NCBI GenBank assembly: GCA_965203055.1
Contig: OZ241863.1
Span: 1,760,001-1,824,000 of the forward strand
DNA length: 64,000 nt
From: Spirochaetia bacterium
GTDB taxonomy: Bacteria > Spirochaetota > Spirochaetia > SZUA-6 > Bin103
Direction: 5' to 3'
The notes under the pieces were generated by a model. It was not told where the DNA came from and ran no database searches. It saw only the letters and a list, made by a program, of their open reading frames with translations. Each line of letters begins with the position of its first letter. Position 1 is the first letter of the stretch. This document shows positions 36,043-54,118 of the stretch, piece after piece. The position numbers and the translations under genes are program-made.

Positions 36043-37537
36043 TCAGCCGGCCGCTCGCCCGCCCGGGGGCGGGACCGGCGCCTGACGATCATTGCCGGGG
36101 CGGCCGAATCCGGCGCCGGCGTGGCGGTAGCGATGATGCGCGGCGCACAGCAGTCGGAGATTGTCCGGCTCGGCGGCGCCGCCCTGGGCATACGGCACGA
36201 CGTGATCGATCTGCAGCAGGTGTTGGGAGCCGCAACGGCGCCCGCTGGTGTGGTCCACGTAGCTGCAGCGGCCCCGGTCGCGCCGCCAGACCTCGCGCTT
36301 GACCGCCGCCGGGATGGCGCGGCCGGTCGGGCCGCCCTCCTTCGCTGCCGAAGTTTCGGTCCGCGCCGGCGGCGCAGCCCGCGCCGCCCCCGCCGTCGCA
36401 GCCTGCCCGCCGGGGCGCCGCGTCTTCGGCGCCGAAGTTGTGTCGCCCGCCGGGTTCACTGCCGAAGTGTCCGGGCGGGCCGGACCGCGGTCCGCCTGCA
36501 GCGGCGACACGGCTTCGTCTCCCGGCGGCGCCGCCGCCTGAGCCGACACCTTCGCCGCCGAAGGAGCCGCCCTGTCCGAGATGGCAGCCCGCTTCGCTGC
36601 GGAGGCAGCGCCGCGAGCCGAGACCTCCTGCGTCTTCGCCGCCGAAGTTGGCTCGGCGCCTTTGGCCGGCGCGGCGCGCCGCCCGCGCGGCGGCCGGGCC
36701 GGGTCGTGACGGTCGAGTCCTTCCCGCACCAGCCGCGCCATGAGCTGCCCCGACGTCAGGTGCGGATCGACGTGGGACAGGAGGCCCTTGAGCCGCTCCA
36801 AGCCGCGCCATGAGCTGCCCCGACGTCAGGTGCGGATCGACGTGGGACAGGAGGCCCTTGAGCCGCTCCAAGCCGCGCCGGCACTCATCGTCAATCACCG
36901 CCTTGAGTTCCCAGCGCCCGCCGCCCAGAGGCCGCACCCGCTCCGCCGGCGCCGCCAGTTCCGGGTCCACCTCGGCCAGCAACTGCATCACCTCCCGGCT
37001 GCTCTTGCCGGACGCCTGCTCCACCAGCTCCCGCCGCGCCTCCGGGTCCAGCACCGGCGCCGGCGCCGGCGCCGGCTTCCGATCCGCCGGCCGCGGCGGC
37101 GCCGAGCCGTTCTGCGACCGAGCGGCAGCCCCGAACCCGGTCCCGGCCCCGCCCGGCGCGCTACGCGCCGCGCGGGCCTTCTTGCGCTCCTGCCGGTCGA
37201 AGGCATGCTGCAACTGCGCGGCCGCGTTCAGCGTCATCGTGCCATTCCGCAGGCGCTCGCGCACGCCCTCGACCTCCGCGCAGAGCCGCATCGCCTTGAT
37301 GCGCCGCCACGCTGCGGCGTCGCTGTAACCCAACTCGCGCACCGCGTAATCGAACAGGCTCGAGAACCCGCGCCGCAGATACAGGCGGCGCTTCTGAATC
37401 TCGCGCAGGTGATCGATCACGACCACTTCGAGATGGTGTTCGATGCCGGAAAGTTCCTTGGTCCGCTCCAACAAGCGGTCGTCCGAGAGAGCGGATACGG
37501 TAGTCGTGACTGCCTCGTCAGAGGCATGGTTGTTCAT
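36043..37537 (-). pseudogene. HNH endonuclease family protein, copy 2, frameshifted by an internal 70-bp duplication
   Basis: Close paralog of 4182..5474; complete IDHVVP..GG..NLRLLCAAHH present but in a different frame from the N-terminus. Confidence 0.85.
36731..36879. repeat. Perfect 70-bp tandem duplication bounded by 9-bp microhomology AGCCGCGCC
   Basis: 36731-36800 equals 36801-36870; AGCCGCGCC at 36731, 36801 and 36871. Confidence 0.92.
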
Positions 37538-40660: not shown

Positions 40661-43081
40661 ATGGCGCCACCTCCCTTGAGGGAACTCGATTCCGACGGAT
40701 CGGTTCTGTTTCTCGGCTCCGGCTTTTCCCGGAGCTCCCGGAACATTCAAGGCAAGAATCTGCCCACCGGCGGCGAGCTGAAGGAACACTTCGCCAAGCT
40801 GCTTGGAGTCGCGCCTGACGATTACGATCTCCCTACGTTGGCGGACGCCGTCAACGCCGACCCGCAGGTCAGCCTGCGCGATCTACTCTATGAGACCTTT
40901 ACCGTCGCGCAGCTCGCCGACGGCCAGAAGGAGGTGCTGGGCCGGCCGTGGATGCGCATCTATACGACCAACTACGACGACTCCATAGAACTGTTCTACC
41001 AGCGTACCGGTCGTAAGGCGCCGAGTTTCAGCTACCACGACGCCAAGCCGCGGCGGCTGCCGAACAGTACCGTGATCCACCTGCACGGGATGATCCGCAA
41101 CATCACCGACGGCAACGTTCTCGACCAATTGATCCTCAGCGAAGAGGCGTACGTGCGACAGCATTTCGAGACGTCTCCCTGGTACGATGAGTTCGTCCGC
41201 GACCTCAAAGTGTGCAGCGCCTGCTACTTCGTCGGCTACAGCCTCAAGGACTATCACATTTCGGCCATCCTCATGCAGAATCCCGGCCTCCGCGAGAAGA
41301 CCTTCTTCATCACCGGACCGGTACCTGACCCGATATCCGCACGGACCATGGAACGGTACGGAACGGTCATGCCGATCGGCATGGACGCGTTCAGCGACCT
41401 CTGCAAGACACTTCCCCCACCGCAGCCCTCTACGTCCGATCCGCACTCGTTGAAGCTCTTTCGCTATCTCGATCCACTGAAGGACAAGAGGACGCTTGCT
41501 CCTCCGACCGCCGTCGAGATACTCAATCTGCTGAGATACGGCGCATTCAACCGTCAGCGTTGTATCTCCACCCTTCCGAAAGCGCAATACGTCGTCCCTC
41601 GACAAGCGCTCGCGAACGAAGCCGCCGAGAAGCTGGCAACGGCCCGCTGTCTGCTCGTGCACTCCCGAATCGGCAACGGCAAGACGACCTTCCTGCACAT
41701 ACTCGCGCACCGATTATTCGAAGCCGGCTATCGGTGCTTCTGGTGCAAGTCAGGCACCCCCGCATTGCATTCATATCACCCCCATTTACGCCGAGACATT
41801 CATACTCTGCGGAGCTTGGGGAACGTGGTCATCATCTTCGACTCCTACGACACGGCCATCGAGCTGTCGGACGCGCTCTCGGAATCGCTTTCCGACGTCA
41901 AGTTCATAGTTTCGGTGCGTACCGGGGTCCACAGCGTGCGGACGCACGAGATACACTCGAAGCTTCCCGATCCGATCCAGAGCGTCAATCTGAACGGCAT
42001 TCAGCAGACCGACGTCGACGACTTCAGGAAGCTGTTGGACAGCATCGGGATATCCACCGATGAACAACGCCGGCTGGTGCGCCACAAGAACGACTTTCGC
42101 GATGTCATGCTGGCGCTCTTCGACAACGCGACGGTCAGGAGCGGAATCCTGGAGGCGTTGAAGCCGTTGCTCGATGACGCGGAGTACAAGAGGGTATTCA
42201 TCGTATGCCATGTACTGAAGTGGGTCGGTCAAGAGGCGGACGACGCAATGCTCCGGATCGTCACGCGCAGTGATCCGTACCTTCAGATCAGACGGTATCC
42301 GGGCGTGTCCGCAGACATATTCAGTTTCGACGACGACAGCTTCGGCGTGCGGTCGTCGATCCTTTCCGAGTACCTGATCAAACAGCTTCTGACGGCGGAG
42401 GACGTTATCTCCTGGATCTACAAGATCGTCGTCGAGGCAGTCAAGAGAAAGTCGGAGCGACGCAATCAGACGACACTGAGACGGCTCATGCGCTTTTCGC
42501 CCTTGTATCAGGCATTTCGCAACGACGTGCGGCGGCTCGAACGGTTGACCGACCTGTTCGAGCTGTGGCGGCGCCACGAGCTGATTAGCAGAGAGCCGCT
42601 GTTCTGGCTCCAGTACGCCATATTGAAGACCGAGGCGAACGACTTGCAGTTGGCGGAGGCGTTTATCGAAACCGCCTACGGGCGCGCTCATGAGATACCG
42701 GGATTCAGGACCTACCAGATCGACACCTACGCGCTCAGACTGCTATTGATCTTGGAGACGCGCGCGGCGGACGCCGGTCCGGTCCGACGTTTCGACAGGA
42801 TCATCGACAAACTGGAGCAGGTACGGCCGATGATCGGCGACGTGAATTATCGATGGCACGCCGTCCAGGTACTCGCTGAACTGGAACCCTTCGTTGCTCT
42901 CCGTACCGGTTCGATGTCGAACGGCGAGCGGATCGCGCTGGTGCACCAACTGCGCCTCCTGCTTCAGAATATGCAACTTCTGCCGGCCGAGGCGCGCGCC
43001 GAGACCGGCGCTGACAAGGTGGAGCAGAAGGTCGAACGTTCGATCGAGACCATCGTGAACGCCAATCCCGACGTCAGGTAG
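40661..43081 (+). CDS. SIR2-like domain + P-loop NTPase + helical C-terminus; candidate anti-phage protein
   Basis: VLFLGSGFS, YTTNYDD, HLHG, FVGYSLKD; Walker A HSRIGNGKT and Walker B VVIIFD; visibly lower GC than neighbours. Confidence 0.85.
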   Translation: MAPPPLRELDSDGSVLFLGSGFSRSSRNIQGKNLPTGGELKEHFAKLLGVAPDDYDLPTLADAVNADPQVSLRDLLYETFTVAQLADGQKEVLGRPWMRIYTTNYDDSIELFYQRTGRKAPSFSYHDAKPRRLPNSTVIHLHGMIRNITDGNVLDQLILSEEAYVRQHFETSPWYDEFVRDLKVCSACYFVGYSLKDYHISAILMQNPGLREKTFFITGPVPDPISARTMERYGTVMPIGMDAFSDLCKTLPPPQPSTSDPHSLKLFRYLDPLKDKRTLAPPTAVEILNLLRYGAFNRQRCISTLPKAQYVVPRQALANEAAEKLATARCLLVHSRIGNGKTTFLHILAHRLFEAGYRCFWCKSGTPALHSYHPHLRRDIHTLRSLGNVVIIFDSYDTAIELSDALSESLSDVKFIVSVRTGVHSVRTHEIHSKLPDPIQSVNLNGIQQTDVDDFRKLLDSIGISTDEQRRLVRHKNDFRDVMLALFDNATVRSGILEALKPLLDDAEYKRVFIVCHVLKWVGQEADDAMLRIVTRSDPYLQIRRYPGVSADIFSFDDDSFGVRSSILSEYLIKQLLTAEDVISWIYKIVVEAVKRKSERRNQTTLRRLMRFSPLYQAFRNDVRRLERLTDLFELWRRHELISREPLFWLQYAILKTEANDLQLAEAFIETAYGRAHEIPGFRTYQIDTYALRLLLILETRAADAGPVRRFDRIIDKLEQVRPMIGDVNYRWHAVQVLAELEPFVALRTGSMSNGERIALVHQLRLLLQNMQLLPAEARAETGADKVEQKVERSIETIVNANPDVR

Positions 43082-43094
43082 ACGAAGGCTCCTC

Positions 43095-43869
43095 ATGTTG
43101 TGGTACAAGGTCCTCGGCCTGATCGCCACGCCGCTGGGAGTCGCACTCGGCTCTGGACTGCTGGCGCTGCCGGCGCTCCGGCGGCGCGGGCGCGGCCTTG
43201 CCGCCGGACTGCTCGGCTTCTCGCTGCTGTGGCTGTGGGCATGGTCGCTGCCGGTCACCGCGCAGGTGATCATGCGTTCGCTGACGACTCGGTACCCGCC
43301 GCAGCGGGCGGAGACGTTGCCCGGAGCGGACGCGATCGTGCTGGTCGGCGGCAGCGTCGTCCCGGCCTGGAACGGGGAACGGGCGCCCTATCCCGACCTG
43401 CGGGAAAGCGCCGATCGGGTGTGGCACGCGGCGCGCCTGTACCACGCCGGCAAGGCGCCACTGATCATCGTCTCCGCCGGCAACGTGTGGGACGCGCCCG
43501 GCCGACAGTCGGAGGCCGACGCCACCCGCATGGTGCTGGCCGCGTTCGGGGTCCCGGAAGCGGCCGTGGTCAGCGAACGGCGCAGCCGCACCACCCGCGG
43601 CAACGCGGCGTACAGCGCGGAGATCGCCGCCGCCCGCGGCCTCGAGACGGTGCTGGTGGTCACGTCAGCCTGGCACATGCGCCGCACTCTGGCCGCCTTC
43701 CGACGGGCGGGACTGCAGGCGCTCGCCGCCCCGACGGACCACGGGAGCAGAGACGCTCAACCTCTGCTCCTGCGGCTCCTCCCGGCGAGCTGGGCGCTGC
43801 GGGAAAGCACCAAGGCGTTCCGGGAAACACCTCGGTCTCCTCGTCTACCGCCTGCGAGGTTGGGCGTGA
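43095..43869 (+). CDS. YdcF/ElyC (DUF218) family protein with an apparent 1-nt insertion near the 3' end
   Basis: AIVLVGG, DRVWHAARLY, SRTTRGNA, VTSAWHMRR. Removing one A in GGGAAAC near 43825 restores ..FREHLGLLVYRLRGWA* (TGA 43867-43869). Confidence 0.85.
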
Positions 43870-43969
43870 GCAGCGCGACGGTAAAGCCGACGTGGCCCCG
43901 GTCGCCCGAGGGCCGCCGGGACTGTCGGCCAATCCCGCCGACATCGTCCCCGGAAAAAAAGGGGGCGGT

Positions 43970-44004
43970 GGGCCTTGACAAGTGAGGGGCATCAGGTGTA
44001 CAAG
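43970..44004 (+). promoter_or_regulatory. Candidate promoter of the surface-protein island
   Basis: TTGACA at 43975-43980 within GGGCCTTGACAAGTG..CAGGTGTA, a motif repeated near 52650; -10 element weak. Confidence 0.45.
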
Positions 44005-44092
44005 GGGATAGTCGGCAACGAGTGACAACAAGCTAATTGTTTGTATGAAAGCGCTTACTCGTACTTGACACATGCCTGCAAAAGGAGATAAG

Positions 44093-44991
44093 ATGGCTCA
44101 ACCGCTCAACCGCTCAACCGCTCAACCGCTCAACCGCTCAACCGCTCAACCGCTCAACCGCTCAACCGCTCAACCGCTCAACCGCTCAACCGCTCAACCG
44201 CTCAACCGCTCAACCGCTCTAAGCCGTTAGTCAGGCAACGGCCCCCGCACCCTCCGGGCGGGCCGATCGCGATAGCTTTTGGCGCTGTCGCCCTACTCCT
44301 CCTAGCAGTCCCGCAGCAAACACTATTTGCAGATAGCCACACCCCGAGGACCGGCATCTATGCCGACGTCGGCGCCGGCGTAGTTCTGATCCACAAGCAG
44401 ACCGACGGCATTTCAGGCTCAATCAAGACCGAACGAGACTCCCGCGTAATCAGCACGACGGATACGAAGGTCGTCTGGGAATACTCTCCCGGTTTCAGCC
44501 TTCACGGAGCCATTGGCTATGGATTCGGAGATGTTCGCGTCGAAGCGGATTTCAGCTATCTGACGGCCGGCGCCAAGGCGTACCAGCCACGCACGCCGGA
44601 CGCCGTCATCCGCGAAATCAAGGAAACTCTCCGAATGAACGTCATCGGCCTCATGGCGAACGGTTGGTACCGTTTCCAGACCGGTACGGGATTTATTCCA
44701 TTTCTCGGTGTCGGCGTTGGCGGAGCGAGTCTCACGGTACCCGCCACGAATGTCCCGGCCGGTACCGAGACTCCCACCCTCGCAGGTTGGGGGCTTGCGT
44801 ATCAGGCGAGTGCGGGCGCGGGCGTCGAAGTTGCTCCCGGCGTGGAGCTCAAACTAGGTTACCGATTCTTCGGAACGACCGAATCGAAGCTGGAATACAA
44901 GAACGAGATCGCGACAACGACGGTAACGGCAACGGCCAGCCCGACCATACTGAGCCATCGTTTCGAACTCGGCGCAAGTTTCCACTTGTAA
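44093..44991 (+). CDS. Opacity-protein-like (OMP_b-brl type) outer-membrane beta-barrel, out of frame at the SSR (phase OFF)
   Basis: The frame after the repeat encodes signal ..IAIAFGAVALLLLAVPQQTLFA, then GIYADVGAG, GAIGYGFGDVRVEADFSY, LMANGWY, PFLGVGVG, LAYQASAG, LGYRFF, HRFELGASFHL. It has no ATG/GTG/TTG of its own before 44635. Confidence 0.85.
44096..44215 (+). repeat. Simple sequence repeat (GCTCAACC)15 immediately after a start codon
   Basis: 120 nt = 15 perfect octamers following AAGGAG-ataag-ATG (ATG at 44093). Confidence 0.97.
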
Positions 44992-45015
44992 ATCCAAGCC
45001 TACGAGGTAGAGTCT

Positions 45016-47310
45016 ATGTCCAATCTGTGTAAATCCTTCCTCCGCGCGGCCAAGTTAGTAGTACTCACGGCTGCAGCCGGTGGCGCGATCCTCCTGATGG
45101 CTTGTGAGCCGGCGGTCCCGAAGCCACAGGCCGACACTCCTACAACGCCCACTACCATCCCGGATCACGGCCTCGGCCTTGAACGCATGGATGTCCGCGC
45201 CTACCAGAGTACCCACATCCTCCGAGCCGATCCTGTCTCCCTGCCGTCCTCCGTGGACATCAGCGTCGATCTGCCACCCCCGGGCGACCAGAAACAGCAG
45301 CCTAGTTGCGTTGGCTGGGCGGTCGCCTATGCCCTGAAAAGCTTCCAGGAACGAACCGAACGGGGTTGGCCACTCACCAACAATCGGCACATCATGAGCC
45401 CCGCGTACGTCTACAACCAAGTCAAGCTTCCCGGTGGCGGAGCATTCTTCGTCGATGCGTTCAGCTTGGTCCTCAACGAAGGAGTCTCGTCCTGGGCGAC
45501 GATGCCCTATAACCCGCGCGACGACCGCACCCAGCCTAGCGCCGCCGCCAGATCCGAGGCGGCCAATTACAAGATCGCTGACTGGGGTTCCGTGCTGCGT
45601 ACCACCCACGCTCAGTTCGTACGGGAGGTCAAACGCCATCTAGTGGCTCAGCAGCCGGTGGTGATCGGGATCCCCGTCAAGCCCGACTTCTATTCACTCG
45701 GAGAGAATGGCAACGATATCTACGATGACACCAGCGGCCAAACCTTCGGCGGACATGCGATCGTGATCGTCGGCTACGACGATGCGCGGTCGGCGTTCAA
45801 GATAATCAACTCGTGGGGCACCGGCTGGGGGTTCGGCGGCTACGGATGGATCGACTACGACGCCAGCGACGAGCTGATATGGGAGGCCTACGTAACCAAG
45901 GACGTACGCGCTGACGTCACCCCCGCGACGCCAGTGGCAGCCTCCAACCCGAACCCTGACAATGCAGCGACTGCGGTTGAGACCGACACGCAGTTGAGCT
46001 GGACGAAAAACGACCGGACCACCAGCTTCGACGTGTACATCGGAACGGAACGGAACCTGAGTGCGGCAGACTTCCAAGGCAGCGTAGCGGTACCGAGTTT
46101 CTCGACGCCGTTGGCTCCCGGAGCGACCTACTACTGGCGCGTCGACGCGCGCGGGCCGGGCGGATTGACGAACGGGCGGGTATGGTCGTTCACCACGGCA
46201 GGTGGAGACGTCGATACCGATACTACGCCAAGCGTGGCGATCATCAACCCTGACGTGAACCGGATCCTGAAGGCAGGTGTCCTCACTGACAGAGGTGTTT
46301 ACCATAGCATCGCCGTCGGAGAACTGGCGCAGCTCAGAACTGGACCAGGGAGAGACCAACTTTCTGGATGTATCGAGGAGAGAGAACATGAAAATATTTA
46401 CGAAATAAGTCCCGGATGCTACAGAGGCGTTGGACGGCAACGCGACTTCATTGGCCAGCTACTCGATACGAATGGATACGACGTGTCTTACTTCGAGGCC
46501 GGCGCGATGCCGGCTATCGACGCCGATGACTACGACGTCGTCGTGGTTCAGGATCCATTGAAGACGAACGGCCGAGCGTTCACCAAAGCGAGTATGGAGG
46601 GATCGGTTCCCGATCTGCTCGAACACGTGACGTCGTCGCGGTTCCGCTCGCGCGTTGCCGCCTATCACCAATCGGGTGGTACGCTCGTGCTCGTGGGAGA
46701 CGCGGTGCGCTTGTTGGAGAGCGGGACGAGTCGACTTGGAGCCAACAAGACCATTCGCCAAGTCTCGGTGGACAACACGGTGAGCGAATCAAACTCATTG
46801 CTGGCGACGCAATGGCTGTTTGTCAGGGGCAATCCGTTTTGCGGCGTTGACCGGTCGGGATCGGCCGAGTATACCGCCTCGAGTACCACACTGTTGGATT
46901 CTACGGGAGCCACGCTTGGGAGACTCCGTTTGTTCAACGGCAACGACATCCCTGTTCAGAACTTGTGGTCAGACACGATCTACGCTCCCACCGACGGAAC
47001 GTCCCTTCTCGATGTACGAGTGGCGGGAACGGGGAACTACGTGCTGCGCGGTAACGTCTGCAGTCCGCCGGTGCACACGGTCACGGTAGATGAGACGGTA
47101 ACGAGCTTCATGGGATACACGCTCTGGAATAGTCGAAAGGTGTTCTATATCGGCAGCGACTCGTTCTTCGACTATCGTTTCAGAAACCATGAAGGCGCTT
47201 GGCACGCGGGACAGTACATCGAGATCAACTTCCGAGTAACCGAAGACGGCCGTCGGGCGGTATTGGAACTTGTCAAGAAAGCAGCGGCGGAATCAGGAAA
47301 TGACCTGTAA
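45016..47310 (+). CDS. Lipoprotein with papain-like (C1) cysteine peptidase domain, FN3-like module and unassigned C-terminal domain
   Basis: Lipobox LLMAC; catalytic motifs DQ....SCVGWA, GGHAIVIVGYDD, IINSWGTGWG; TYYWRVDA..VWSFTT. Confidence 0.9.
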   Translation: MSNLCKSFLRAAKLVVLTAAAGGAILLMACEPAVPKPQADTPTTPTTIPDHGLGLERMDVRAYQSTHILRADPVSLPSSVDISVDLPPPGDQKQQPSCVGWAVAYALKSFQERTERGWPLTNNRHIMSPAYVYNQVKLPGGGAFFVDAFSLVLNEGVSSWATMPYNPRDDRTQPSAAARSEAANYKIADWGSVLRTTHAQFVREVKRHLVAQQPVVIGIPVKPDFYSLGENGNDIYDDTSGQTFGGHAIVIVGYDDARSAFKIINSWGTGWGFGGYGWIDYDASDELIWEAYVTKDVRADVTPATPVAASNPNPDNAATAVETDTQLSWTKNDRTTSFDVYIGTERNLSAADFQGSVAVPSFSTPLAPGATYYWRVDARGPGGLTNGRVWSFTTAGGDVDTDTTPSVAIINPDVNRILKAGVLTDRGVYHSIAVGELAQLRTGPGRDQLSGCIEEREHENIYEISPGCYRGVGRQRDFIGQLLDTNGYDVSYFEAGAMPAIDADDYDVVVVQDPLKTNGRAFTKASMEGSVPDLLEHVTSSRFRSRVAAYHQSGGTLVLVGDAVRLLESGTSRLGANKTIRQVSVDNTVSESNSLLATQWLFVRGNPFCGVDRSGSAEYTASSTTLLDSTGATLGRLRLFNGNDIPVQNLWSDTIYAPTDGTSLLDVRVAGTGNYVLRGNVCSPPVHTVTVDETVTSFMGYTLWNSRKVFYIGSDSFFDYRFRNHEGAWHAGQYIEINFRVTEDGRRAVLELVKKAAAESGNDL

Positions 47311-49763: not shown

Positions 49764-51466
49764 ATGACGACAGATGATGACGGTACAGGCAACGCGCGCG
49801 CCCTGCGCCGAACAATGGCCGCCGCCCTACTCGGTTGCGTGGCCATCACCGTGCTATTGGCCTGCCCAAACCCGGGAGCCGAGCCGAGCGCATCGGCGCC
49901 GACCACTCCGACCGAACCAGCAACACCGACCGAACCAGCAACACCGACCCCGACAGAGACTGCAACGCCGGCGCCGCCAATACCAGGAGGTGGCGGGGGA
50001 GGCGGTGGTGGCGGCGGTGGCAGCCGCGACGCAACCGCCACTGCCACCATCAGCGCCGGCACCCGTGCAACCGCTACCGCCACCATCGGCGCCGGCGGCG
50101 GCGGTTCCGGTGCCGCCGCTACTGCCAGCATCACGAAGCAGGTGAGACGCGTGACGGTCACGGCCGGCGGCGGCAGCGGATACACCTCGGCGCCGTCCGT
50201 GTCGTTCACCGGCGGCGGCGGTAGCGGGGCCGCCGCTACTGCCTTTATCGGAACGATGATAGTGACAGAAGTGACGGTCACGAACGGCGGCAGCGGATAC
50301 CCGGGGCCGCTAGAGTTTGATGTGTTTCTCCGCGGCGGCGGCGGTTCCGGTGCCACCGCTACTGCCACCACCAACGCAAGCGGCGTGGTGACAAGCGTGA
50401 CGGTCACGAGCGGCGGCAGCGGATACACTTCGGCGCCGCGTGTGGTGTCCCCGACGGTAGCGGTAGCGGGGCCGCCGCTACTGCCAGCATCGGCGGTCCG
50501 GTGACAGCCGTGACGGTCACAAACGGCGGCAGCGGATACACTTCGGCGCCGACCGTGTCGTTCACCGGCGGCGGCGGTTCCGGTGCTACCGCTACTGCCA
50601 GCATCAGCGGCACGGTGACAGCCGTGACGGTCACAGCCGGCGGCAGCGGATACACTTCGGCGCCGCTTGTGCAGATCGGTCCAAACGCCGACGGTCATGT
50701 TAGCGCCGGCGGGTATGCCACCGTATCGAGCGGCGCGGTGACAAGCGTGACGCTCGTGAACGGCGGCAGCGGATACACTTCGGCGCCGACCGTGTCGTTT
50801 CGGGCGGTACCGGCGGGGAATGTGGTGACAGCCGTGACGGTCACGAACGGCGGCAGCGGATACACGACGACGCCGCTCGTGCGCATTGACAGCGGCGGCA
50901 CCATCGCCGCCGCTACTGCCACCGTATCGGGCGGCGCGGTGACAGGCGTGACGGTCACGAACGGCGGCAGCGGATACACTTCGGCGCCGGACGTGGGGTT
51001 CAGCGGCGGCGGTAGGGGGGCCGCCGCTACTGCCACCGTATCGGGTGGCGCGGTGACTGGCGTGACGGTCACGAACGGCGGCACAGGATACACGTCGGCG
51101 CCGTTCGTGGCGTTCAGCGGCGGCGGTGTTGGCTCGGCCGCCGCCGCTACTGCCACCGTATCAAGCGGCACGGTGACAGGTGTGACGGTCCTTCTAAGCC
51201 TTAGCGGCTTAACTTCGGCGCCGACGGTGACATTTGAAGCGCCGGGCAAGGTGACAGGCGTGACGATCACGAACGGCGGCCGCGGCTACACGTCGGCGCC
51301 GGACGTGGCGTTCGGCGCCGGCACCGGAGTCGTCGACTACTTTCTTGACGGTGGCGGCGCCAGCGCTACTGCTACGGTATCGGGGGGCGCGGTGACAAGC
51401 GTGACGGTCACAGACGGCGGCCGCGGCTACCCGTCAGCGCCGTCCGTGCGATTTATTAGGAACTAG
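49764..51466 (+). CDS. Gly/Thr/Val-rich repeat lipoprotein, paralog A, split by an apparent 1-nt deletion near 50448
   Basis: Lipobox LLAC-PNP; repeats [34 protein letters not shown]. ORFs 49740..50504 and 50501..51466 join as [19 protein letters not shown] if one base is added. Confidence 0.82.
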
Positions 51467-52687: not shown

Positions 52688-54118
52688 ATGACTAATACAA
52701 CAGATACCGACAAAGCGCGCGCCGCGCGCCGAACAATCGTCGCCGCCCTCGGTTGCGTGGCCGTCAGCGTGCTGTTGGCCTGCCCAAACCCGGCAACCAA
52801 GCCTGACGCATCGCCTACTGCTGCACCCACGAAGCCGACAGGACCGACGGCCCCGACAGAACCAGCAACCCCGACAGAACCGACAGAACCAGCAACGCCG
52901 CCCCCGACCACCGGAGGCGGGGGCGACAGCGGCACCCGCGACGCAACCGCTACTGCCACCATCAGCGCCGGTACCCGCGCAACCGGTACCGTCACCATCG
53001 GCGCCGGCGGCGGCGGTTCCGGGGCCGCCGCTACTGCCACCATCGGAAGGATGATAGTGACAGGCGTGATGGTCACGAACGGCGGCAGCGGCTACACCTC
53101 GGCGCCATCCGTGGCGTTCAACGGCGGCGGCGGTTCCGGGGCCGCCGCTATTGCCTTTATCGGCGCCGAGGTGACAGGCGTGACGGTCGGGGTCGGCGGC
53201 AGCGGCTACACCTCGGCGCCGGCGGTGGGGTTCGTCGGCGGCGGCGGTTCCGGGGCCGTCGCTACCGCCACCGTATCGGGCGGCGCGGTAACGGGCGTCA
53301 TGGTCACGGACGGCGGCAGCGGCTACACCTCGGCGCCGTTCGTGGCGATTTCCTCGCCGCCGCCGGGCGGTGACGATGCCAGCGCTACTGCCAGCATCGG
53401 CACGGTCCAAGTGAATAGAGTAGGAATCCTGTCTCCCGGCGCGGGCTACACGTCGGCGCCGACCGTGGCGTTCAGCGGCGGCGGCGGTTCCGGGGCCGCC
53501 GCTACTGCCATCGTCGCCGGCGCGGTGACTGGCGTGCCGATCACGAACGGCGGCAGCGGCTACACGTCAGCGCCAACCGTGGCGTTCAGCGGCGGCGGCG
53601 GCGACGGTGCCAGCGGGTATGCCACCGTATCGGGCGGCGCGGTGACGCGCGTGACGCTCTTTGGCGGCGGCCGCGGCTACACGTCGGCACCGGACGTGAC
53701 GTTTACGGCGCAGTCGGGCAGCGTGGTGACAGGCGTGACGGTCACGAACGGCGGCAGCGGCTACACCTCGGCGCCGCGCGTGCAGTTCAGCGGCGGCGGC
53801 GTTGATAGTCCTGCCGCACTAGCTACTGCCACCATATCGGGCGGCACGGTGACTGGCGTGACGATCTTGATCAGCAAAGGCGGCTTAACGTCGGCGCCGT
53901 CCGTGACGTTTGACGCGCCGGGCAGGGTGACTGGCGTGACGGTCACGAACGGCGGCAGCGGCTACACCTCGGCGCCAACCGTGTCGTTCAGCGGCGGCGA
54001 CGGCGCCGGTGCCACCGCTACTGCCACCGTATCGGGCGGCGCGGTGACTGGCGTGACGGTCACGGAGGGCGGCCGCGGCTACGCGTCAGCGCCGTCCGTG
54101 GAGTTTGTGAGGAACTAG
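52688..54118 (+). CDS. Gly/Thr/Val-rich repeat lipoprotein, paralog B (intact)
   Basis: Lipobox LLAC-PNP, PTEP linker, same repeat unit and C-terminus (SAPSVxFxRN) as paralog A. Confidence 0.85.
   Translation: MTNTTDTDKARAARRTIVAALGCVAVSVLLACPNPATKPDASPTAAPTKPTGPTAPTEPATPTEPTEPATPPPTTGGGGDSGTRDATATATISAGTRATGTVTIGAGGGGSGAAATATIGRMIVTGVMVTNGGSGYTSAPSVAFNGGGGSGAAAIAFIGAEVTGVTVGVGGSGYTSAPAVGFVGGGGSGAVATATVSGGAVTGVMVTDGGSGYTSAPFVAISSPPPGGDDASATASIGTVQVNRVGILSPGAGYTSAPTVAFSGGGGSGAAATAIVAGAVTGVPITNGGSGYTSAPTVAFSGGGGDGASGYATVSGGAVTRVTLFGGGRGYTSAPDVTFTAQSGSVVTGVTVTNGGSGYTSAPRVQFSGGGVDSPAALATATISGGTVTGVTILISKGGLTSAPSVTFDAPGRVTGVTVTNGGSGYTSAPTVSFSGGDGAGATATATVSGGAVTGVTVTEGGRGYASAPSVEFVRN

Follow-up and report, generated by a model that had tools for sequence, protein, structure and literature searches.

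An octanucleotide array of variable length between the start codon and the signal peptide of a predicted Opa/NspA-type barrel gene: a probable translational phase variation locus in a Spirochaetia bacterium

Introduction

What is made from a gene whose start codon is immediately followed by fifteen perfect copies of an octamer, and does the number of copies decide it? The question is raised by a locus located at positions 44093-44991 of the window, i.e., the whole stretch of 64,000 nucleotides of a Spirochaetia bacterium (GCA_965203055.1, contig OZ241863.1, positions 1,760,001 to 1,824,000, forward strand) that was analysed here. Host-adapted pathogens provide the textbook examples of slippage switches, and the repeat-mediated frame switching of outer-membrane proteins is a classic case. 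The original prediction for this locus was an Opacity-like outer-membrane protein under an octamer ON/OFF switch, arisen independently of that of the Neisseria opa genes.

Results and Discussion

Structure of the Locus and Reading Frames

The Shine-Dalgarno sequence AGGAGA (44083-44088, plus strand, as all the features given below for the window) precedes an ATG at 44093-44095, which is directly followed by the slippage-prone array (GCTCAACC)15 plus GCTC (44096-44219, the 15 units spanning 44096-44215). Tandem Repeats Finder describes the array with a period of 8, 15.5 copies, 100% matches, and a score of 248; a perfect array of 120 bases cannot be the outcome of chance. The array is free of stop codons and is translated as AQPLNRST in each of the three sense frames; in single-stranded form, it shows less structure than its shuffled versions (z = +3.09). 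The genome-wide octamer search that had been proposed with the original prediction revealed exactly one GCTCAACC array in the genome (4,557,819 bases, 68.75% GC, a single contig), and among the 41 related genomes searched the pattern was retrieved from one, namely, this same genome (G000).

The frame of the ATG at 44093 encodes 45 residues, M(AQPLNRST)5ALSR, and ends at the TAG 44228-44230, which is met when the number of units is n = 0 mod 3 (15 units here; 3 in one of the metagenomic runs discussed below). When n = 1 mod 3 (e.g., 16 units), frame arithmetic leads to the TAA 44220-44222. The remaining frame extends over 299 codons without a stop, bounded by the TAA 44089-44091 and the TAA 44989-44991; according to frame arithmetic on the 15-unit array, it is thus n = 2 mod 3 (14, 17, and so on) that connects the ATG to the barrel. 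These data agree with what had been anticipated for the locus: a ribosome-binding site and an ATG directly ahead of 15 octamers with termination at the TAG, termination at a TAA with 16 units, and read-through into a signal peptide and a barrel with 14 or 17 units, the third frame being indeed open up to 44991.

Direct reading, the ORF scan, and the in-frame calls available in public data indicate that the ATG 44093-44095 is the sole usable start codon for the barrel. The claim that the barrel has no other start also held, since its frame contains no ATG, GTG, or TTG from the array to position 44635; the internal ATG at 44635-44637 is the one chosen by gene callers and gives a 118-aa ORF. That gene callers would report only such a fragment is borne out by a public protein from this genome (P0007), which is 118 aa long. 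A second in-frame ATG lies upstream, at 44072, and lacks a Shine-Dalgarno sequence; the public in-frame alleles are called from the equivalent of 44093.

This arrangement outlines a simple switch. The octamer array separates the only usable start codon from the signal peptide and the barrel, and slipped-strand mispairing at replication would add or remove units of eight bases; since eight is not a multiple of three, each one-unit change would shift the barrel among the three frames. With n = 2 mod 3, the cell would produce a precursor consisting of Met, (AQPLNRST)n/3, the charged region, the signal peptide, and the barrel; read in either of the other frames, the message would be left by the ribosome one or three codons past the array. 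The reference genome (n = 15) is in an off state.

The Predicted Product

The product of the open frame comprises a K/R-rich stretch, a hydrophobic helix ending with ...TLFA|DS, and then about 218 residues. The charged N-region (KPLVRQR...) and the hydrophobic signal peptide correspond to positions 44221-44331, as judged from the translation, the helix of the structural model (residues 16-28), and the alignment of this region with the signal peptides of paralogs starting with MRIFATLL...; cleavage probably occurs after LFA (LFA|D). The mature protein, a putative outer-membrane beta-barrel of the Opa/NspA/OMP_b-brl type, is encoded by 44332-44991 (stop codon included). Its C-terminus is ...SFHL, and most homologs terminate in F.

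Probing Pfam retrieved OMP_b-brl (PF13505; 6.8e-11, 43.1 bits with a cut-off of 28.7), Surface_Ag_2 (1.6e-9, 38 bits with a cut-off of 22), and, marginally, Opacity (PF02462; 2e-4, 21.9 bits vs. a cut-off of 21). A profile built on 15 homologs matched Neisseria Opa60 (1.3e-10) and NspA (7.4e-10) in the PDB, and 14,457 cluster representatives of a large protein library at E ≤ 0.001. The AlphaFold model obtained with an 87-sequence alignment has a pLDDT of 89.8 and a pTM of 0.79, and the best Foldseek matches were small outer-membrane barrels, i.e., Legionella porin III (9nh2_A, 6.6e-9) and NspA (3.4e-8, with a target-normalised TM-score of 0.76), followed by OprG, OmpW, OpcA, and OmpA. DSSP assigned 12 strand segments to the model, in which two putative loops are modelled as hairpins. 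Four family-variable segments (approximately residues 61-80, 121-135, 171-188, and 221-240) lie between conserved ones and embed most of the differences between strains; in the model, this pattern fits four loops, two of them being those built as hairpins. The product is thus predicted to be an Opa/NspA-type barrel: the marginal Opacity score, the Opa60 and NspA profile matches at about 1e-10, and the predicted fold all speak for the Opa-like outer-membrane protein that had been proposed, and the structure prediction suggested as a check returned a fold like that of the solved small outer-membrane barrels. We infer that the barrel reaches the outer membrane and that its precursor is exported with a hydrophilic extension of 29 to 85 residues.

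As for the family, many representatives (P0027-P0041 and others) are 420-640 aa long and match the profile in two or three stretches, which points either to tandem barrels within a single polypeptide or to adjacent paralogs merged by the gene caller.

Repeat-Number Alleles in Public Data

A word-index protein search retrieved a 287-aa protein, 97% identical to the barrel, whose 90%-identity cluster has eight members. Three of them are full length (287, 304, and 344 aa; 97-99% identical) and start with MAQPLNRST...; their 31, 47, and 87 repeat-encoded residues, counted on the protein sequences, amount to 11, 17, and 32 units, and the three numbers are all n = 2 mod 3. The 17-unit product is identical to the window translation at all the shared residues past the array, and allele P0010 carries an in-frame insertion of two residues in the last variable segment. 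The other five members, one of them from this genome, are stumps of 118-120 aa, which may come from cut contigs instead of off alleles.

At the DNA level, Logan contigs of four runs were compared over window positions 44190-45015; such contigs cannot count the units of a long array. In run X1 (a sponge metagenome), a 164-base contig passes from ...GATAAGATG straight into the final 28 bases of the array, that is, three units. The shortest Logan records measure 31-32 letters, which points to 31-letter words, and we take the contigs to have been built with k = 31; a 28-base repeat being shorter than these words, the three-unit array of X1 is not a collapsed long array. An allele of three units would hardly slip, so that the X1 strain may be fixed in the off state. 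Run X12 is near-identical to the window and probably the source of this genome; its flank contig begins exactly 30 bases inside the array, the position expected for a long array, and the pure-repeat contigs have a depth of 48-50 vs. 4.5 for the flank, i.e., about 11-fold, the prediction for 15.5 units being 11.75-fold. In run X13, the contig begins exactly at 44192, a break that hints at a mixture of a short and a longer allele. The same run contains a second allele diverging just upstream of 44257, a 14-letter loose end that may represent a further 5' variant of the gene in this sample. The runs containing the locus are labelled as sponge and marine metagenomes, and none of the 17 listed is recorded as RNA. 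A protein search of genome and metagenome contig collections, in which near-identical records are possibly absent, did not retrieve any relative.

Repeat number hence varies among near-identical strains, with 3, 11, 15, 17, and 32 units observed, and those with 11, 17, and 32 units are in frame; an invariant repeat length had been named as one of the observations that would overturn the prediction. The repeat counts of assemblies can be off by one unit, long perfect arrays are error-prone in assembly, and the roughly 11-fold k-mer depth ratio cannot separate 14 from 15 or 16 units; in principle, the out-of-frame count of the reference might be an assembly error, the true genome carrying an in-frame array. 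We regard this as extremely improbable, as miscounting a single length cannot account for 3, 11, 17, and 32 units together; besides, such an error would alter only the state of one genome and not the mechanism.

The locus shares the features of a translational contingency locus: the array is perfect, has a unit not divisible by three, and sits inside the ORF, after the start codon and ahead of the functional part, and its length toggles between a full-length product (287, 304, or 344 aa) and early termination (stops at 44220 and 44228). In our opinion, it is very likely that the locus undergoes translational slipped-strand phase variation, and the interpretation as a slippage ON/OFF switch is supported; switching would presumably be frequent and reversible within a population.

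A Pentamer Array at the Same Site in a Congener

Homologs of the barrel gene are present in 21 of the 41 related genomes. The closest belongs to a member of the same genus (G010, 57% identity), where the matching place, on the minus strand, reads GGGGAGATAAA-ATG-A-(CCGCA)28-TAA. There, translation from the ATG meets an immediate stop, and the barrel has to be read in the +1 frame, which is open for 313 codons; this allele is off, and 26 or 29 units would turn it on. Both off frames terminate within three codons past the array in this species as well as in G010, and the (CCGCA) array occurs at one place only in the genome of the latter. The protein cluster of the congener ortholog has nine members, one of which (P0020, 287 aa) starts with M(TAPHR)3TAPHK..., corresponding to 11 pentamers in frame, and the remaining eight are stumps of 213-220 aa. 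Two congener alleles can thus be recognized, with 28 and 11 pentamer units, the latter counted from the protein.

More distant congeners (loci L003-L008) possess ordinary, repeat-free genes starting with MRIFATLL..., which suggests that the switch is a derived feature of one subclade. Judging from the two sequences, the repeat appears to have been retained at the same site despite a change of unit, the octamer being equal to the pentamer plus TCA (CCGC-A vs. CCGC-TCA-A).

Four further paralog matches were found in this genome, and according to the genome-wide list of arrays none of them has a long array at its 5' end. A G22 tract (genome position 205565) was considered as a second switch acting on the barrel family and rejected, as it sits just past the stop codon of a paralog and not at a 5' end.

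Constraint on the Coding Part

In the four runs compared, the coding part contains no indels. The X1 strain differs from the reference by 31 bases in 27 codons, 21 of which are nonsynonymous and 6 synonymous; over 570 and 198 sites, respectively, this gives a crude dN/dS of about 1.2, a value that would fit diversifying loops but also relaxed constraint. The 21 nonsynonymous codons sit on gap-rich positions of the 87-sequence alignment (mean gap fraction of 0.32 vs. 0.11, permutation p = 0.0004), as well as on variable ones (entropy, p = 0.00055). They fall in four segments separated by conserved stretches, the arrangement that surface loops would be expected to give.

These data bear on the possibility that the gene is a decaying pseudogene, inactivated by a hypermutable microsatellite at its 5' end, with length variation as neutral noise. 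A dN/dS near 1 between X1 and the reference would be in line with decay, and so would the fact that the three alleles seen as DNA (15 and 3 octamers, and the 28 pentamers of the G010 ortholog) are all out of frame, an outcome with a chance of about 0.3. A decaying gene is, however, at odds with the existence of full-length, in-frame alleles in both species, with a 299-codon frame that is open and indel-free in four runs, and with a 313-codon frame kept open in a species where the protein is only 57% identical. Furthermore, substitutions avoid the conserved core (p = 0.0004), the site retained a repeat even though its unit changed, and immediate stops occur in both off frames. Decay is, in this light, improbable, and the substitution pattern fits better with a working surface protein with diversifying loops.

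Translation Start, Promoter-Like Sites, and the Downstream Peptidase Gene

Under the switch model, translation starts upstream of the array. This locus and its ortholog in G010 have in common the Shine-Dalgarno sequence, the ATG, and, 17-18 bases upstream, a TTGAC motif, the segment GGAGATAA[G/A]ATG being kept in G010. The consensus scan of 43600-45300 revealed a sole promoter-like match, TTGACA-N18-TAAGAT (44065-44094; 10 of 12 positions), the second hexamer of which overlaps the ATG; at this place, G010 retains TTGACC-N17-TAAAAT. If this promoter were used, transcripts would begin within the array and lack the ATG. A distal promoter-like site, TTGACA-N18-TACAAG (43975-44004), was recognized by eye, outside the calls of the consensus scan, and could yield a translatable mRNA; at a similar distance, G010 carries TTGACA-N18-TAAAAG. 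Probing Rfam did not retrieve any known RNA in 43700-45100.

The proximal site leaves room for a different view, in which the barrel is made whatever the length of the array, either from a non-canonical start past it (e.g., the ATC at 44266) or through use of the proximal promoter, which would leave the array as just a variable leader. The transcription start expected from 44065-44094, inside the array, would agree with this, and the Met of the repeat-free paralogs (MRIFATLL...) aligns with I16 of the product, whose codon is the ATC at 44266. Nevertheless, ATG, GTG, and TTG are absent from this frame before 44635, the position aligned with I16 is not occupied by a near-cognate codon in G010, and a start at I16 would lose the K/R-rich region conserved before the hydrophobic core in both species; the conservation of the Shine-Dalgarno sequence and of the ATG before the array also argues against a start past it. 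A barrel made irrespective of the array is, accordingly, very improbable.

The gene downstream, starting 24 bases past the barrel stop (45016-47310), codes for a papain-family (C1) peptidase with a lipoprotein-like N-terminus (Pfam Peptidase_C1, 2.8e-12). Synteny, checked by ORF-based tblastn, showed that the peptidase gene also lies directly downstream of the ortholog in G010 (64.6% identity over 345 aa), and no terminator-like site was detected between the barrel and peptidase genes in the scan of 43600-45300. The two genes are possibly co-transcribed, and under the proposed switch the off state may lower the expression of the peptidase by polarity. The upstream genes (DUF218 and SIR2-STAND) are not common to the window and G010. 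The latter gene (40661-43081), 1 kb upstream of the switch locus, codes for an 806-aa protein with a SIR2-like N-terminal region and a STAND NTPase (SIR2_2, 7.8e-14; nSTAND NTPase 5, 3.5e-7), an architecture typical of anti-phage defence.

Other Arrays in This Genome and Elsewhere

At the thresholds adopted here, the genome harbors 40 long repeats with units not divisible by three, many of which lie directly before signal-peptide-like N-termini, and G or C runs of up to 26 bases. Three perfect arrays of CCGCCGAA (or its complement), with 28, 22, and 19 units (G000:C1:2802673-2802896, 2988110-2988285, and 2992981-2993132, respectively), are each located between a TTGACAC-ATG motif and the N-terminus of a GT39-like membrane protein (...LPWRDALVAL...YGVAWDE); a TTG past the first of them could be an alternative start, and the logic there may differ from that of the barrel locus. 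A (ACCGCCG)12 array, one in the genome (G000:C1:2793543-2793626), directly follows TTGACA-N17-TACAAA and precedes a long ORF, probably at its transcription start; its placement resembles that of the window array, which follows a -10-like hexamer. An AACCGC or ACCGC core is shared by GCTCAACC, CCGCCGAA, CGCCAAC, and ACCGCCG, as well as by the CCGCA array in the congener, which could reflect either the GC-rich composition or a sequence bias in the origin of arrays.

Within the window, there are also tandem repeats of 114-117 bases (50092-51190 and 53005-54094; 3-6 copies, 72-80% matches), which probably encode a repeated module of large surface proteins, and a 70-base unit in 2.2 copies with 97% identity (36724-36879).

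Searching public collections for (GCTCAACC)3 retrieved at least 120 metagenome and 109 genome stretches from many phyla, with 213 distinct arrays. These numbers do not single out GCTCAACC as a special octamer, since a rough estimate from the eight octamer arrays per 4.6 Mb of this genome suggests that about 100 matches per octamer class may be ordinary. In the literature collection searched, the doubled GCTCAACC string was not found on either strand. In five of the retrieved loci, GCTCAACC arrays of 4.8-6 units begin 0-12 bases past an ATG, before signal-peptide-like N-termini; their records are titled Planctomycetaceae (L168), Flavobacteriales (L148), and Pseudomonadales (L165) or are metagenome contigs (L042 and L081). 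The proteins downstream are DUF1559/N-methyl pilin-like (in frame), a PQQ propeller, Fib_succ_major, and a weak metallopeptidase match; the arrays of L148, L042, L081, and L165 are out of frame.

A multi-copy element with identical flanks of 45 and 40 bases has 22.9, 9.9, 5.9, 4.9, or 3.9 GCTCAACC units depending on the copy (L199, L176, and L196, from CP050890.1, Thiohalocapsa sp. PB-PSB1; also L048, L034, L039, L241, and L220). As unit number differs between copies of this element, the GCTCAACC array changes its length readily in another organism.

Biological Meaning

The logic of the switch, with natural on and off alleles, is here documented in an uncultured bacterium from sponge and marine metagenomes, which suggests that symbionts of animals, too, diversify their surface as a hedge against phages, host recognition, or grazers. 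A literature search, judged by title and the start of the abstract among the matches listed, did not retrieve any report of repeat switching in sponge symbionts. The locus also illustrates how automatic annotation hides such genes, stumps accounting for five of the eight entries here and for eight of the nine of the congener ortholog, and it represents a concrete amplicon target for measuring switching in nature. The turnover between pentamer and octamer at a single site illustrates how selection can preserve mutability and not sequence.

A more ambitious scenario can be depicted, which we propose only tentatively and, taken as a whole, consider unlikely. The locus might be one piece of a switchable gene set of pathogen scale in a non-pathogenic, host-associated bacterium; its array might gate a conserved two-gene surface module, made up of the barrel and the papain-family lipoprotein peptidase; the in-frame alleles of 11 to 32 units, with 29 to 85 extra N-terminal residues, might tune export and act as a volume control; and the replacement between pentamer and octamer, together with the shared AACCGC core, might reveal a sequence-biased process that seeds and renews arrays.

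Comparison with Known Systems

In Neisseria opa genes, according to PMC3745409, a CTCTT repeat in the region coding for the leader peptide switches a small outer-membrane barrel at the translational level. The locus described here is similar in that a repeat not divisible by three lies between the start codon and the mature protein, and the profile points to homology with Opa60 (1.3e-10). Nonetheless, it is not a Neisseria opa switch in the strict sense: the unit is GCTCAACC, of eight bases (five in the congener, where it is CCGCA and not CTCTT), the array codes for a hydrophilic extension ahead of the charged region, whereas that of opa lies within the hydrophobic core of the signal peptide, and a single array-bearing locus exists in the genome, whereas opa is a multigene family sharing its repeat. 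Moreover, the bacterium comes from sponge and marine metagenomes and is not a human pathogen, and a function of the CEACAM type is not implied. The different unit and the position of the array support the idea, already part of the original prediction, that the switch is an independent analogue of the Neisseria one.

In Hop-family genes of Helicobacter pylori, CT dinucleotide repeats in the 5' coding region set the frame of outer-membrane proteins. There too, the repeat follows the start codon and precedes the signal peptide, but its unit comprises two bases and the proteins belong to another family. Promoter poly-G tracts of variable length control the putative outer-membrane protein genes tpr/tp0126 of Treponema pallidum (PMC7864442); those tracts are homopolymers located in promoters and act on transcription, whereas the present array is an octamer in the coding region that would act on the reading frame. 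As a comparison within one lineage, this parallel applies only if the bacterium is indeed a spirochaete; FlaA (PF04620), taken as a marker for that label, gave no match in this genome or in any of 14 control genomes, and is thus uninformative here. The hmw genes of Haemophilus influenzae biogroup aegyptius (PMC3309571) have 12-15 copies of the octanucleotide GCATCATC; the two arrays have the same unit length, are similar in copy number, and are both associated with a surface-protein gene, but that of hmw is in the putative promoter region and not in the coding region. A survey of Type I restriction-modification genes (PMC7383803) likewise included octanucleotide tracts among those regarded as phase-variable. 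The mechanism is, therefore, a known one; what is unusual here is a coding-region octamer placed before a signal peptide, the turnover of its unit between species, and the setting in a host-associated non-pathogen.
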